64,000 bases of DNA from Leptonemataceae bacterium (GTDB lineage Bacteria > Spirochaetota > Leptospiria > Leptospirales > Leptonemataceae). The notes under the pieces were generated by a model. That model had not been told where the DNA came from, made no database searches, and saw nothing but the letters and a program-made list of their open reading frames with translations. Below are positions 55,153 to 60,684 of this stretch, piece after piece (positions within the stretch are counted from its first letter, which is position 1; every line of letters starts with the position of its first letter). The DNA lies in assembly GCA_965227295.1 (NCBI GenBank), contig OZ245742.1:1120001-1184000 (forward strand). The letters are read 5' to 3'. The translations under genes and the position numbers were made by a program.

Positions 55153-55827
55153 TTACTCATTCCCGCCCGACGGGACCAGATCCACTTCTTTGTTGAGGAT
55201 TTGTTCGACACGATTGCGGATGTCTTCAAACTTCATGTAACCCCGGCATATCAGGATGTACTTGTCCTCTCCGTCCTCGGTTTCGCGGAGCACCAGCGTC
55301 GGGAATCCGCCGATGCCGAAGGACCGCGACATGTTGAAGTTGCTGCGTAAAATATCTTCGGTTTCGGGATCTTCATACTTCGCGCGAAACTCCGCGGGAT
55401 CGATGTCCATGGCCGCGGCGGCCTTTTCGAAGGTCTCGGGTTGCGTGGGATCTTCCGCCTGGGCATAAAAGAGCCGCTGTAGCCTGGACTGAAACTCAAG
55501 CGGTCGCGCCGGCGACATGCGACCGGCGGCCACCACGGCCCGGGACGCCGGCGTCGTATTGTAAACGAAGCCCGGATGTTTCTCGAAGAACGTATCGTCA
55601 AACGGCTGACCGGAGGCTCCCTGGACGGCCTCCCAGTGATGGGCGATTTCTTTCGCCGTGGCCTCCGGCATGGCGCGGGTTTCGTCCGGGCGCAATCCGC
55701 CCAGAACCATCTGCACCGGAATGCGATCCTCATAATTCTGCTGTAGACGAGTGATCTCCGGCGCGAAGCCGTAGCACCACGAACACATGGGATCGGTGAA
55801 ATAAAGAAATTCGTGGCTGGTACTCAT
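55153..55827 (-). CDS. DsbA family (thioredoxin-fold) protein
   Basis: YFTDPMCSWCYGFAP, GGL and GFPTL. Confidence 0.9.
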   Translation of the reverse strand: MSTSHEFLYFTDPMCSWCYGFAPEITRLQQNYEDRIPVQMVLGGLRPDETRAMPEATAKEIAHHWEAVQGASGQPFDDTFFEKHPGFVYNTTPASRAVVAAGRMSPARPLEFQSRLQRLFYAQAEDPTQPETFEKAAAAMDIDPAEFRAKYEDPETEDILRSNFNMSRSFGIGGFPTLVLRETEDGEDKYILICRGYMKFEDIRNRVEQILNKEVDLVPSGGNE

Positions 55828-55925
55828 AGTCTCTCCCTGCAAATCTACAGAAGCCTTTTTCGTAGTTGCTGTTTACTTTATGATAATCAATCCATGCGAT
55901 GATAACAAGAAGTTCCCGGGGTACC

Positions 55926-57632
55926 ATGCATAAGATCAACTACGAACACGAACAGTGCATTCAGGAAGACGACCTGCAACTTTCCTTGCTGGAGATCTCG
56001 CTAAAAAACGGCATCCCTCACATCCACGCCTGCGGCGGCAACGGCCGTTGTTCCACGTGCCGCGTGGCCGTCCTGGAAAACCTGGAGAACGTCCTCCCGC
56101 GAAACGAAACCGAGATTGAACTGGCCCAAAAAAAGAACCTACCCGATCATATACGACTCGCCTGCCAATCCCGCATCCGGGGTCCGGTGACTCTGCGGCG
56201 ACTGGTCATTGACGAGGAGGATTTGCGCGAGGCATCCACGCAGGCCACGGCGGGCCGGGAGCGGCGGCTCGCAATCCTGTTCAGTGATGTCCGTCAGTTC
56301 ACGAATTTTACCGAGAGCAATCTTCCCTACGACGTCGTGCATGCTATGAATCGCTACTTCCGTAGAATGGGAGACAGCGTGAAGAAAAACGGCGGCTACA
56401 TTGACAAGTACATCGGCGACGGACTGATGGCGCTCTTCGGTCTTGAGGAAGATGATCCACAGCTTATCGGATGCCAGGCCGTTCGTGCGGCACTCGATAT
56501 GCTCGACGGCCTGGAAGAAGTGAACGCGTATTTGCGCAAGCACCTGGAGTGTCGCTTTGATATCGGCATTGGCGTGCACTTCGGTGATGTGATTGCCGGC
56601 GAAATGGGTCATCCGGACAAGCGGCAATTCACGGCGCTTGGTGACAACGTGAACATGGCGAGTCGCATTGAATCGGTGACGAAGAAGGCGCGGGTGCCGC
56701 TTTTGATTTCTGAGGATTTGCACGCCATTGTTAAGGACAAAGTCGTCGTCGATAAAAAGTTTCGCACGGCCCTGAAGGGCAAGAGCGGAAGCTATCGTCT
56801 CTTTCATGTGAGCGGCCTCGTTGAGGCGGCGCCGGGGAGCGCCGAGAATTCCGCCGATGTTCCAAAAGCTGCGGAAGCCCCGGAAGTTTCTACGAACGCT
56901 GCCGCACCGGCGCAGCGGAAACGCTTCGAACTGCCGCTCCTCGAATCACACTCGGTCGCCGAGAACACGATGGCCTTCTTGATTGATACGTCCGGTGTGG
57001 ACTTTGCGTTTCGGGTCGGCCAGTTCGTCAACGTTCGTCTTCCCGGCCATGACGGAGTACGCTCGTTTTCCCTGGCGTCTTCGCCGCACATCAGCGATTT
57101 CGTTATGATCGCCACGCGCATGCGGGGCTCGGAGTACAAGCGCGCCCTGGCCGCACTGGAACCGGGCACAAAGCTCATTGTCGAGGAGGCCCGCGGGAAC
57201 TTTGCGCCGCAACCGCAGGATGACACAACGCCCGCGGTTTACATCGTCGGCGGCATCGGCATTACACCGGTACGTGCCATGCTGGAATTGGCCGTGCATC
57301 GGGAAAGCAGCCGGCCCATGACGATTTTTTATTCGAACCGCGAAGAGACGGAGGCTGCTTTTTTTGAAGAGATTCAGGCGTGGTGCGAACACCTGCCGGG
57401 CTGCCGCCTCGTGCCCGTGTTCACCCGCGAAAAAACCGAGGGCTCGGACGCCGAATTCGGCCGCTTCGATACTGCGATGCTACAGCGCCACGTTCCGGAC
57501 CCCGCGGCACCGCAGTACTATGTGGTAGGACCGGAGGGCATGGCCTCGCAGGTACGGGATATTCTGGGACAGGCCGGTGTGCCGGAAGATCATATTCACC
57601 TGGAAACGTTTTACGGCTACGATTCCGGCTAA
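55926..57632 (+). CDS. Three-domain fusion: [2Fe-2S] ferredoxin - class III adenylate cyclase - ferredoxin reductase (FAD/NAD(P)-binding)
   Basis: HACGGNGRCSTC…RLACQ; FSDVRQFT, DKYIGDG, GDNVNMASRIE, LKGK; GQFV, RSFSLASSP, GGIGITP, YSNR, VGP and ETF. Confidence 0.9.
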   Translation: MHKINYEHEQCIQEDDLQLSLLEISLKNGIPHIHACGGNGRCSTCRVAVLENLENVLPRNETEIELAQKKNLPDHIRLACQSRIRGPVTLRRLVIDEEDLREASTQATAGRERRLAILFSDVRQFTNFTESNLPYDVVHAMNRYFRRMGDSVKKNGGYIDKYIGDGLMALFGLEEDDPQLIGCQAVRAALDMLDGLEEVNAYLRKHLECRFDIGIGVHFGDVIAGEMGHPDKRQFTALGDNVNMASRIESVTKKARVPLLISEDLHAIVKDKVVVDKKFRTALKGKSGSYRLFHVSGLVEAAPGSAENSADVPKAAEAPEVSTNAAAPAQRKRFELPLLESHSVAENTMAFLIDTSGVDFAFRVGQFVNVRLPGHDGVRSFSLASSPHISDFVMIATRMRGSEYKRALAALEPGTKLIVEEARGNFAPQPQDDTTPAVYIVGGIGITPVRAMLELAVHRESSRPMTIFYSNREETEAAFFEEIQAWCEHLPGCRLVPVFTREKTEGSDAEFGRFDTAMLQRHVPDPAAPQYYVVGPEGMASQVRDILGQAGVPEDHIHLETFYGYDSG

Positions 57633-57645
57633 CTTTCACGCGCTA

Positions 57646-58806
57646 CTAGTTAAGGTTTTTATCGAGGCCCCAGTTTTCCAGGCGCTCCCGGGGCACGCGG
57701 AGCGGCGGGCCGCCCTCGCAGTGATATTCCAGAAGAAAAGCAATCATCTTCAGATTGATGTATCCGAGGATTCTCGCCACGGTCGTCGAGCGATCACCGG
57801 CCTCGTCCATCAACCAACCGATCCGCCGGGCCCAGGGCAGAAAATTTTCGGTCCAATGGCCTTCCTGAATTCCCAGCCGCAGCGCCAGATCGTTGCCGAG
57901 TACGTAATGCAACATGGTTTCAGCGATGCCGTCGAGTCGTTCTCCGGGGATGACGTCGTGCAGGAATTCCACCAGCGCCCGGGTAAGCTGCACGCCGTGT
58001 TGCCCCGGATGCTGGAGCCGGCCTTTGATCATGCGAAAGAGTGCCCGGGCTTCCTCGGGATCTTCCTTTAATAGTTCATCCGGAACACCCATAACGTAAC
58101 CTACCACGTTCCAGGCATGGAGATAGTCCCGCGTTTCCTGATCTTCCAGATCGTATCCGAAATGTTCGACCAGGCCGTCCAGAATGAGAATCGAGAACGT
58201 GTACAGGGTGCCGGCGATTTCTTCCTGGCTGATGGGCACGTCGGCCCCGGCCTCCCGGTGCCGCGGTCGGTTCACGGCATGGACGAGCCGGATAGCCTGG
58301 GCACTGCGCACGCCGAAGCCGCCCTGCTGGAGGTCCCCGGGATTCATCACATCGATCAAAAACTGGGCCGTACGGAGAATGCGCCGTTTGATGCCGCGGT
58401 CCATTTCGCCGGTCTTTACAAGCACCCGGGCCGGACGTTCGCAGGCATAACCCTCGGGCAACGACGAGAAAAAGAGCAAGGTCACAGCGTGTAGGCCGTT
58501 CCGGTAAAAGAATTCCTGGCCGTTGGCGATGCGCTGCGGATCGGCCCAATCCGGTAGATTGCCGGTGGCTTTCAGGTATGCGCGCACGGGTTCCGGAACC
58601 CGCGCATGCAGTTCTGCGTCGCTGAAGTCGGGGTTGAGCATGATGCCGATGATGCGCCGCAATTCCAGGTCGGTTTTCTCCGGATCGTCGCCGCAGAGCT
58701 TCCCGACGGCGACGACACAGGCGTCTCCCTCCGGATCGCCCGCGGAGCTGTATGCCTTCAGGAATTCATCGGTTTCGCTTTGCTTGCTGCTATTGCCACC
58801 GGCCAT
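57646..58806 (-). CDS. Oxygenase MpaB/DUF2236 (Lcp-like) family protein
   Basis: LPDWAD…GQEFF, SLPEGY, RRILRTAQF, IRLVHAVNR (putative heme His), PISQEE and YLHAWNVVGYVMG. Confidence 0.8.
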   Translation of the reverse strand: MAGGNSSKQSETDEFLKAYSSAGDPEGDACVVAVGKLCGDDPEKTDLELRRIIGIMLNPDFSDAELHARVPEPVRAYLKATGNLPDWADPQRIANGQEFFYRNGLHAVTLLFFSSLPEGYACERPARVLVKTGEMDRGIKRRILRTAQFLIDVMNPGDLQQGGFGVRSAQAIRLVHAVNRPRHREAGADVPISQEEIAGTLYTFSILILDGLVEHFGYDLEDQETRDYLHAWNVVGYVMGVPDELLKEDPEEARALFRMIKGRLQHPGQHGVQLTRALVEFLHDVIPGERLDGIAETMLHYVLGNDLALRLGIQEGHWTENFLPWARRIGWLMDEAGDRSTTVARILGYINLKMIAFLLEYHCEGGPPLRVPRERLENWGLDKNLN

Positions 58807-59652: not shown

Positions 59653-60684
59653 ATGTGCCGGGCTCAATTCCCGCTAATTGTATATAAGATTTCTCTAGTG
59701 ACCGCGGCCGTTGTCATAACGGGTACGCTCTTCGCCCGGGACGTTCCCTATCTCAGCGGTCGGGTGGTGGACGAGGCCGGGCTACTGTCCGAAGACGCCG
59801 TCCGACAACTGGAGGAGCGCCTGGGCGCCCACGAAAACGAGACATCGAACCAGGTTGTCGTCCTGACGATTCCTTCTCTCGAAGGCGAGGTCATCGAACA
59901 GTACTCCCTGAAAGTAGCCGAGGCCTGGCAACTCGGTCAGTCCGACAAAGACAACGGGGCCCTGTTGCTGATCGCCCGGGATGATCGTAAACTCCGCATC
60001 GAAGTAGGTTACGGACTGGAAGGTGCATTGAACGATGCCGTTTCCGCACGCATCATTCGTAACGAAATCGTGCCGCGTTTTAAGGACGGCGAGTTCGAGG
60101 CGGGTGTAAACGCCGGCGTGGGCGCAATGCTGGCCGCCATCGCCGGCGAGTACAGCGCGGACGAGCAGGCCACGGGTAGCACGGAAGAACCGGCCGCCGA
60201 GGAAGGGCAATCGACCGTCGATACCGTGATCGGCTGGATCGGCAACGTGCTCGCGATTGTCATCGGCATCGTGGTGATCCTGATCGCCGCGGGCCTGGGC
60301 CTGGGTTTCGTCTATTATCTGTTCATGGTCGCAGTCTTCGGCGACGGATTTTCCGGCTGGGCTCTGTTCGTTATCCTCGGCCCTATCGTCGGCATGATCG
60401 GACTCCTCCCCGTGGCATTCTTTGATCTTCCAGGCTATACCGTCCTACCGACCCTCATCACGATCGTCAGCCTGATGTTTGTCTTCAAGCTTTGGCTCAG
60501 CTTAACAAAAACCGGGCGTGAGTTTAGAAAGAAGCACGAGGTCAAAGGCGACGGCGGCTCATCCTCCTCGTACAGCGGGAGTTCGTACTCATCCAGCTCG
60601 TACTCGTCTTCGTCGTACTCGTCGAGTTCCTACTCCGGCGGCGGTGGAAGTTTCGGCGGCGGCGGTGCTTCCGGTAGCTGGTAA
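59653..60684 (+). CDS. TPM domain protein with Gly/Ser-rich tail
   Basis: RVVDEAGLL, DNGALLLIA, RIEVGYGLEG and C-terminal GGGGSFGGGGASGSW. Confidence 0.9.
   Translation: MCRAQFPLIVYKISLVTAAVVITGTLFARDVPYLSGRVVDEAGLLSEDAVRQLEERLGAHENETSNQVVVLTIPSLEGEVIEQYSLKVAEAWQLGQSDKDNGALLLIARDDRKLRIEVGYGLEGALNDAVSARIIRNEIVPRFKDGEFEAGVNAGVGAMLAAIAGEYSADEQATGSTEEPAAEEGQSTVDTVIGWIGNVLAIVIGIVVILIAAGLGLGFVYYLFMVAVFGDGFSGWALFVILGPIVGMIGLLPVAFFDLPGYTVLPTLITIVSLMFVFKLWLSLTKTGREFRKKHEVKGDGGSSSSYSGSSYSSSSYSSSSYSSSSYSGGGGSFGGGGASGSW
60568..60642 (+). repeat. Imperfect 15-bp tandem repeat (5 units) encoding SYSxS
   Basis: Units tcgtacagcgggagt / tcgtactcatccagc / tcgtactcgtcttcg / tcgtactcgtcgagt / tcctactccggcggc. 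Confidence 0.7.

Follow-up and report, generated by a model that had tools for sequence, protein, structure and literature searches.

Control of a class III cyclase by an iron-sulfur cluster is known in outline only, and for a single membrane protein, CyaC of S. meliloti. In PMC10463352, which cites Wissig 2019, CyaC is described as carrying two heme B groups and a [2Fe-2S] cluster, as responding to respiratory quinones and as being activated after oxidation by quinones; its redox regulation is also stated in PMC9552081. PMC4821796 describes 30 class IIIb cyclases in which a cytochrome-b-like anchor of six transmembrane segments (6TM) is followed by a cytosolic ferredoxin. Here we report on a gene at positions 55926-57632 (plus strand) of a 64,000-nucleotide stretch of Leptonemataceae DNA (assembly GCA_965227295.1, contig OZ245742.1, positions 1,120,001 to 1,184,000), which as a whole is referred to as the window. 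The encoded protein is securely identified as a soluble fusion of a [2Fe-2S] ferredoxin (Fer2), a class IIIb adenylate cyclase and a ferredoxin reductase (FNR)-like module. Judged by its domains, what appears to be new is a redox-linked Fer2-cyclase with a built-in NAD(P)H-flavin reductase replacing the membrane diheme input. The protein probably turns the redox state of the cell into a cyclic AMP (cAMP) signal. Our literature searches, with the supplementary lists of PMC4821796 outside their scope, found no paper on the Fer2-cyclase-FNR architecture, in line with an earlier model-made reading of the same DNA (hereafter the sequence-only reading), which did not know the three-domain form as characterised.

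We propose that the [2Fe-2S] cluster in the N-terminal ferredoxin, packed rigidly on the cyclase, probably sets the output, and that the tethered FNR-like module most likely passes electrons from NAD(P)H via FAD to the cluster, either within the same chain or across the dimer. The redox state of the cluster would then be set by reduction from NAD(P)H on one side and by cellular oxidants on the other, with cAMP synthesis following that balance. By analogy with CyaC the oxidised state would be the more active one, with NAD(P)H damping or resetting the signal. We give about an even chance to this reading as a whole, in which electrons running from NAD(P)H via FAD to the cluster control cAMP synthesis within one soluble protein. 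Its parts differ in strength. We infer strongly that the cluster governs the cyclase, from the rigid and conserved core of the model, the redox-active partners of this core in other proteins and the analogy with CyaC. The domain set is read most economically as an FNR module that would reduce the cluster with NAD(P)H. That electrons pass between FAD and the cluster, and in which direction, is inferred as well, as is the sign of regulation, which is borrowed from CyaC.

The coding region is a single stop-free frame of 568 codons followed by a stop codon. An in-frame ATG at 55899, 27 nt upstream, would give a protein of 577 residues (nine more); alignments with homologues begin at residue 1-3 of the 568-residue form, i.e. 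at the ATG at 55926, and this form is already present in a public protein record. The Pfam domains Fer2, Guanylate_cyc, FAD_binding_6 and NAD_binding_1 occur in this order (Table 1), so that translation and domain search together confirm the sequence-only reading of one uninterrupted frame with three parts. All motifs named in that reading were located and are given below with their domains, and its Ala/Pro/Glu linker at about 56820-56920 corresponds to the tether of Table 1. A simple hydropathy scan of the 568-residue protein detected no membrane-like segment.

Table 1. Parts of the Fer2-cyclase-FNR gene and its divergent neighbour, in window coordinates.
Feature	Position	Strand	Basis
[2Fe-2S] ferredoxin domain, residues 1-95	55926..56210	+	Pfam Fer2; four invariant Cys
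Ferredoxin-cyclase connector, residues 96-110, including helix 97-105	56211..56255	+	Invariant residues; helix predicted in both models
Class III (IIIb-type) adenylate cyclase catalytic domain, residues 111-298	56256..56819	+	Pfam, PDB matches, Foldseek
Disordered Ala/Pro/Glu-rich tether, residues 299-332	56820..56921	+	pLDDT <50 at residues 302-329
FAD-binding beta-barrel of FNR-like module, residues 333-430	56922..57215	+	FAD_binding_6, Foldseek, motifs
NAD(P)H-binding Rossmann half of FNR-like module, residues 431-568	57216..57629	+	NAD_binding_1, motifs
Stop codon	57630..57632	+	Translation
DsbA-like thioredoxin-fold gene, CxxC motif	55153..55842	-	Pfam DSBA, E 1.9e-14; divergent, 83 nt away

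Conservation was judged on a family alignment of 34 sequences (alignment A1), consisting of the query and the 33 other fused clusters described below. The cyclase domain matches Guanylate_cyc (PF00211) at residues 113-287 (E 1e-24, 87.6 bits against a cut-off of 21.9). The metal ligands Asp121 and Asp165, located in the motifs FSD (119-121) and GDG (164-166), are invariant (34/34) and align with Asp residues of Cya2 and CyaB. The substrate residue Lys161 of the motif DKY (160-162) is present in 34/34 sequences and Thr236 in 33/34, and the transition-state residues Asn243 and Arg247 (N-x3-R) are again invariant (34/34). In Cya2, a guanylate cyclase, the position of Lys161 is held by the substrate-specifying Glu. 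An adenine-specifying Lys together with a Thr that replaces the second specificity Asp was reportedly described by Linder and Schultz in 2003 as a marker of class IIIb. The catalytic residues of the alignment thus indicate an ATP-using class IIIb adenylate cyclase. PDB sequence matches of the domain include Cya2 (2w01), CyaC (1wc0) and CyaB (3r5g), and Foldseek superposes the modelled domain on these three with TM scores of 0.85-0.91, normalised to the target. The residues that the sequence-only reading had singled out (the metal-binding Asp pair, Lys, Thr and N-x3-R) are therefore present and conserved in the family, and a dead cyclase domain was rejected.

The ferredoxin domain matches Fer2 (PF00111) at residues 10-84 (E 1.9e-8, 34.5 bits against a cut-off of 21), and its cluster ligands Cys36, Cys42, Cys45 and Cys80 are invariant in all 34 sequences. 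The domain had been described as a plant-type ferredoxin with four Cys. While the four Cys stand, the type does not: their spacing is C-x5-C-x2-C-x34-C, whereas strict plant-type ferredoxins have C-x4-C-x2-C-x29-C, and among solved structures it comes nearest to PnsB3, E. coli Fdx (1i7h), terpredoxin, putidaredoxin and adrenodoxin, NqrF ranking lower. Because of this spacing and these adrenodoxin/putidaredoxin-like relatives, the term plant-type holds at the level of the Pfam family only. In the connector region that leads to the cyclase, residues R91, L93, V94, D96, D99 and G110 are invariant. A model of the core (residues 1-302, built from a 59-row alignment) reached a mean predicted local distance difference test score (pLDDT) of 96.3 and a predicted TM score (pTM) of 0.87. 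Since this model forms one rigid unit and the invariant connector residues agree with it, the model suggests that the ferredoxin holds a fixed position on the cyclase.

The three-domain architecture is borne out as one gene. Within a protein collection clustered at 90% identity, 33 of the 120 best clusters are full-length fusions of Fer2, cyclase and NAD_binding_1 with 94-99% query coverage and 38-56% identity, and those bearing an organism name are all metagenome-assembled genomes (MAGs) of spirochaetes. A 50%-identity library listed 150 representatives, nine of which are of the three-domain type, the query's own cluster included. All three domains were matched in 7 of 40 related genomes, all belonging to one family (f1). 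Two of these, G001 and G002, are of the same genus as the window and carry intact single open reading frames (ORFs) with 58-59% identity; G010 likewise has an intact three-domain ORF, and in G005 and G024 the two matched pieces lie within single ORFs of 554 and 556 residues, respectively. The sequence-only reading had named, as an outcome that would speak against it, homologues that always occur as two genes; these five genomes show single ORFs instead. In G012 the match runs only to residue 515, where the contig ends. The three-domain form was absent from all 16 genomes of a second family (f2), where matches end near residue 300. Finally, six of the 80 best loci in a species-level genome collection are full-length, all titled as spirochaete MAGs (Leptospirales, Leptonemataceae, Leptospiraceae, Spirochaetales or Spirochaetaceae). 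The three-domain form is rare and, as far as seen, restricted to Leptospirales-like spirochaetes.

A fusion created by misassembly or misannotation, or a decaying gene, could in principle account for three observations. Contigs of sequencing run X2 leave positions 56780-56876, within the linker, uncovered and have a loose end at 57111; this gap proves nothing, and strains that differ in linker length, or just low depth, could have caused it. In a 389,904-base contig of another assembly, the identical gene was called from an internal GTG at residue 152 (P0002). This call of 417 residues, which represents the query's cluster in both protein libraries, is too short, as it is without the ferredoxin and the first metal-binding Asp. 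In G008 (C25:1047-2690; genome 91% complete and 7% contaminated) the three-domain homologue carries one in-frame TGA, which may be a sequencing error or mark a pseudogene. Against this stand the 33 other fused clusters at 38-56% identity, the intact single ORFs in five genomes, the conservation of functional residues, the public record of the 568-residue form and a 102,692-base contig of run X1 (from the same study as X2) that spans the whole gene with 0 differences, although it is possibly the source of the window DNA. We consider an artefact or a decaying gene extremely improbable, and a misassembled fusion was rejected on the fused clusters, the intact ORFs elsewhere and the conserved functional residues. 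The junction that the sequence-only reading had asked to see supported is thus supported by the fused clusters and by the single ORFs of other genomes.

The Fer2-cyclase core (residues 1-300) is widespread and also occurs alone, as proteins of about 310 residues. In other proteins it is joined to a C-terminal heme peroxidase (PF00141; in many named Leptospira species), to a globin at either end, to Rieske, to CDGSH plus Rieske, to YceI or, in one weak match, to a PNPOx-like domain. Anchored forms carry N-terminal extensions of 150-300 residues with several transmembrane-like segments that hold His residues; such N-anchored relatives, e.g. P0256, are about 40% identical to the query core. Among the 257 top matches, which are best matches and not a census, 79 are of the peroxidase type, 68 core-only, 25 globin-bearing and about 30 anchored; 35 are of the FNR type, with the query and its truncated twin among them. 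YceI proteins bind polyisoprenoid or quinone-like lipids, and nearly every partner of the core binds either a redox cofactor or a quinone-like lipid. The redox-to-cAMP part of the sequence-only reading fits these partners and the oxidation control of CyaC. We tentatively suggest, with rather less confidence than we place in the NAD(P)H-to-cluster reading, that the core is a general electron-to-cAMP cassette wired to interchangeable redox front-ends across lineages, these being NAD(P)H-FNR, heme peroxidase, globin, Rieske, CDGSH, YceI/quinone and diheme membrane anchors. If so, the FNR form would be the first case of a second-messenger cyclase that is run by a complete electron-transfer chain in one soluble protein, one that compares NAD(P)H supply with oxidant load and writes the result as cAMP.

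Individual proteins illustrate this variety. P0150 is a Fer2-cyclase-Rieske protein, P0184 has the order CDGSH(x4)-Fer2-cyclase-Rieske, and P0166 and P0158 are Fer2-cyclase-globin and Fer2-globin-cyclase proteins, respectively; the Atlas clusters for the CDGSH, Rieske and globin forms have 63-139 members. P0137, P0151 and P0160 form a small clade (100% support) with an extra C-terminal domain, which is YceI-like in P0137 and P0151, the two members scanned. In G001 a gene for a 575-residue Fer2-cyclase-peroxidase protein (L104:944-2671) is present besides the FNR form. A peroxidase form was not found in the window's own genome, which has the FNR form only.

Two core trees bear on the origin of the architecture. 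The first had 139 rows, with P0002, P0226 and rows without a near-complete core dropped and with random subsamples of the larger types (peroxidase 28 of 78, core-only 28 of 55, globin 14 of 23, anchored 20 of 24). It places the 33 FNR forms among peroxidase and core-only forms and needs one change to explain them (support 62). The second tree (IQ-TREE, 87 rows) needs two changes; a tree that holds the FNR forms together is 29.6 log-likelihood units better, with p = 0.80 in the approximately unbiased (AU) test. Because of both trees and the AU test, a single gain of the FNR module by an older Fer2-cyclase core is the simplest reading of these sequences, although not proven. The sequence-only reading had set the protein beside MmoC/XylA-type reductases, in which ferredoxin is N-terminal and FNR C-terminal. 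This framing is misleading: the ferredoxin is of a different type, scores against the equivalog models are far under their cut-offs, and the trees point to an appended FNR module. An MmoC-type reductase with a cyclase insert was rejected likewise, the trees pointing to an FNR module appended onto an older Fer2-cyclase core.

In the FNR-like module, NAD_binding_1 matches residues 440-544 (E 5.7e-17, 62.8 bits against a cut-off of 22). The FAD half of the query reads R379-x-F-S382 (the RSFS motif), where the usual flavin motif is R-x-Y-S/T, and T397-R398...S402..K405, and its Rossmann half G442-G-I-G-I-T-P448, Y469-S-N-R472, V534-G-P and a C-terminal E560-x-F562-x-G564-Y565 (ETF at 560). Conserved elements across the 34 sequences are R/H379-x-F381-S382 (R in 26 and H in 8 sequences, F in 31/34, S in 33/34), R472 and the C-terminal E560-x-F562-x-G564-Y565; in the GGxGxxP motif G443, G445 and T447 are invariant and P448 is found in 31/34. 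Foldseek matches the module to Fre (1qfj, TM 0.86), and FAD/NAD modules of Fre and flavohemoglobin reach 0.84-0.86 (normalised to the target), with FAD domains of NqrF also retrieved. The module scores alike against the NCBIfam models of NqrF, PaaE, Hmp, BenC and MmoC and under every curated cut-off; only the FNR part of the query matches, with 87.8 against 295 for NqrF, 84.9 against 420.8 for PaaE, 78.1 against 430 for BenC and 75.5 against 500 for MmoC, all far under the equivalog cut-offs. The FNR-like modules of BenC, MmoC and NqrF, which are among these nearest models, reduce Fer2 domains.

The closest relatives of the module are stand-alone 'FAD-dependent oxidoreductases' of about 240 residues from other phyla, with 34-41% identity. 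Aligned with the query, 41 of them share R-x-F-S, T-R-M-R...K, GGIGITP, Y-S-N-R, (S/V/A)-G-P and an E-E-F-x-G-Y end; they differ in being single-module proteins, often with a DUF488 gene next to them. Their neighbourhoods were taken from metagenome contigs, using 51 of 80 returned loci and leaving out 29 short ones. A DUF488 gene lies directly downstream on the same strand in 15/51 loci, and a ferritin-like gene is nearby in 4/51. The neighbour groups scanned with Pfam include DUF488, ferritin-like, ArsR-type regulator and transaldolase groups.

FNR-type enzymes are reversible, and electrons might also flow the other way, from a cellular donor to the ferredoxin and through the FNR module to NAD(P)+, so that the sensor would read a low-potential ferredoxin pool; the present results leave the direction free. 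Yet no donor gene was linked to the cyclase gene at the loci examined, and the BenC-, NqrF- and Fre-like relatives run from NAD(P)H to an acceptor. We regard such reverse flow as very unlikely.

Several results weigh against the proposed path from NAD(P)H through FAD to the cluster. The match to FAD_binding_6 (residues 336-426) has 21.0 bits against a cut-off of 21.1 and is thus 0.1 bit under it. The Cys of the usual CGP motif is never present in the family, its place being taken by A in 21, V in 10, S in 2 and G in 1 of the 34 sequences. Judged from the alignment, the FNR module is evolving faster than the core: on average, Fer2 is 57% and the cyclase 60% identical to the query, compared with 36% for the FNR module, and the tether varies between 9 and 46 residues with a mean identity of 10%. 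At the threshold used, position 199 is the only core position that separates FNR-type from peroxidase-type proteins, and therefore no docking surface specific to the partner is visible. No ferredoxin was found among the six Pfam-scanned neighbour groups of the stand-alone relatives. The full-length AlphaFold2 (AF2) model (pLDDT 88.3, pTM 0.48, residues 302-329 with pLDDT <50) leaves the FNR module unplaced relative to the ferredoxin, and reductases with both domains (GcoB, T4moF, BenC and carbazole reductase) superpose on it at a root-mean-square deviation of 18-20 Å (about 19 Å) only, so that the docked Fer2-FNR geometry is not reproduced by the model. The chain from NAD(P)H via FAD to [2Fe-2S] within the protein, as put forward in the sequence-only reading, thus found no direct support in these models. 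A complex prediction of the FNR module (330-568) with FAD and 2Fe-2S against Fer2 (1-100) gave an ipSAE of 0.00 in both runs, which is evidence neither way. As for the CGP motif, the query does read VGP, as had been pointed out, but this is not a lesion. It is a subfamily trait, since the Cys is absent from the whole family and also from the 41 stand-alone relatives (S 21, V 12, A 6, T 2).

With no docking of FNR on Fer2 predicted, one may ask whether the cluster senses by its integrity, i.e. by loss or conversion through O2, reactive oxygen species, nitric oxide or iron shortage, and not by its redox state. The role of the FNR module would then be to repair the cluster or reduce it again, or only to bind NAD(P)H as an allosteric site. 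Sensors of the IscR and NsrR type are examples of cluster-integrity sensing. Such a role is consistent with the resemblance of the ferredoxin to ISC-type and adrenodoxin-type proteins, with the peroxidase of the sister proteins and with two thiol- or peroxide-related neighbours, an AhpC/TSA_2 and a DsbA-like gene. However, stable electron-transfer ferredoxins have this fold and the same four Cys ligands, most partners of the core are electron carriers, and the characterised relative CyaC is described as reversibly regulated by oxidation and reduction. We judge integrity sensing to be unlikely, and retain redox control of the cluster as the preferred reading.

The upstream gene is divergent (DsbA-like, Table 1) and the downstream gene, which encodes an MpaB/Lcp-type oxygenase and lies 13 nt away, is convergent, so that the cyclase gene looks monocistronic. 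A promoter and terminator scan of 55700-57800 gave one match of each kind, no more than in shuffled sequences. Within the genus the neighbourhood is kept (AhpC/TSA_2, DUF4349, DsbA-like, MpaB/Lcp and two TPM genes), and in other genera the neighbours are unrelated (RNB, cation efflux, AcrB, rhomboid and others). The lack of a co-directional neighbour and the little conserved context fit a self-contained sensor. The DsbA-like gene recurs once outside the genus, in G010 (L023:7483-8292, minus strand / L025) with 36% identity and there in convergent orientation, and was not found in the remaining three-domain loci searched; it may be functionally linked to the cyclase gene, for which this recurrence is a weak indication. 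A TPM-domain protein at 59653-60684 of the window (plus strand) has a long Ser/Tyr/Gly low-complexity tail after several hydrophobic stretches.

The adjoining oxygenase gene, kept in the genomes of the same genus, and the nearest FNR models, which are reductase components of oxygenases and NqrF, raise the question whether the protein is mainly an oxidoreductase. Electrons would pass from NAD(P)H via FAD and the ferredoxin to an outside acceptor (an oxygenase, quinone, iron or flavin), and the cyclase would report this flux, respond to it in its activity or be loosely coupled to it. The oxygenase gene, though, is convergent and not co-transcribed, and the three-domain loci of other genera lack it. 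Moreover, the ferredoxin is predicted to be rigidly packed on the cyclase, and the existence of core-only proteins, i.e. the 68 two-domain sequences of the sample, points to a regulatory role of the cluster. A mainly catalytic function therefore appears quite improbable to us, somewhat more so than integrity sensing, and a role of the cluster in controlling cAMP synthesis remains the reading that we prefer.

A network that could receive such a signal exists in this organism, as indicated by its cyclase paralogues and cAMP-binding domains. Its genome of 5.94 Mb in one contig encodes about 44 further class III cyclase domains, many of them in ORFs of 400-2000 residues, and has 30 matches to cNMP_binding (PF00027), 29 of which are above the cut-off. 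The protein would connect cAMP directly with the NAD(P)H pool and oxidants of central redox metabolism, in a bacterium with dozens of cyclases. A soluble protein of 568 residues with its own reductase would also be a much easier model for the cluster-cyclase mechanism than a membrane protein, and if it works as proposed it could be used as a genetically encoded tool that translates levels of NAD(P)H or oxidants into cAMP. The occurrence of the same core with at least six other redox domains suggests a wider, so far unstudied class of redox-gated cyclases in many phyla.

How does the protein compare with known systems? With CyaC (SMc01818) and the 6TM 'ferredoxin' class IIIb cyclases (e.g. R. 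palustris Q132R4) it shares a Fer2 domain directly N-terminal to a class IIIb cyclase. The electron input of CyaC is described as a diheme-B membrane anchor that reads the quinone pool, whereas the window protein has a soluble C-terminal FNR-like FAD/NAD(P)H module and no membrane segment, in a comparison made with the published description of CyaC. The Fer2-cyclase-heme peroxidase proteins of the Leptospira type are nearest in the trees and have the same core (52-60% identity over residues 1-300), but carry a C-terminal PF00141 peroxidase in place of the FNR module. The soluble class IIIb cyclases CyaC of Spirulina (1wc0), Cya2 (2w01) and CyaB (3r5g) resemble the protein in catalytic fold and residues, the Lys/Thr pair being the same as in Spirulina CyaC; they have no ferredoxin or FNR domain and are regulated by bicarbonate, GAF or other inputs. 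BenC (1krh), MmoC, T4moF, GcoB and NqrF share the cofactor set of [2Fe-2S], FAD and NAD(P)H and the FNR fold. Their ferredoxin is of another type, their domains are contiguous and docked while in the window protein the cyclase lies between them, and they feed oxygenases or quinones, not a signalling domain. SoxR, finally, is a [2Fe-2S] sensor that is kept reduced by the NAD(P)H-dependent Rsx/RseC system and switched on by oxidation. It is a transcription factor with a separate reductase, whereas the window protein would unite reductase, sensor and second-messenger output in one polypeptide.

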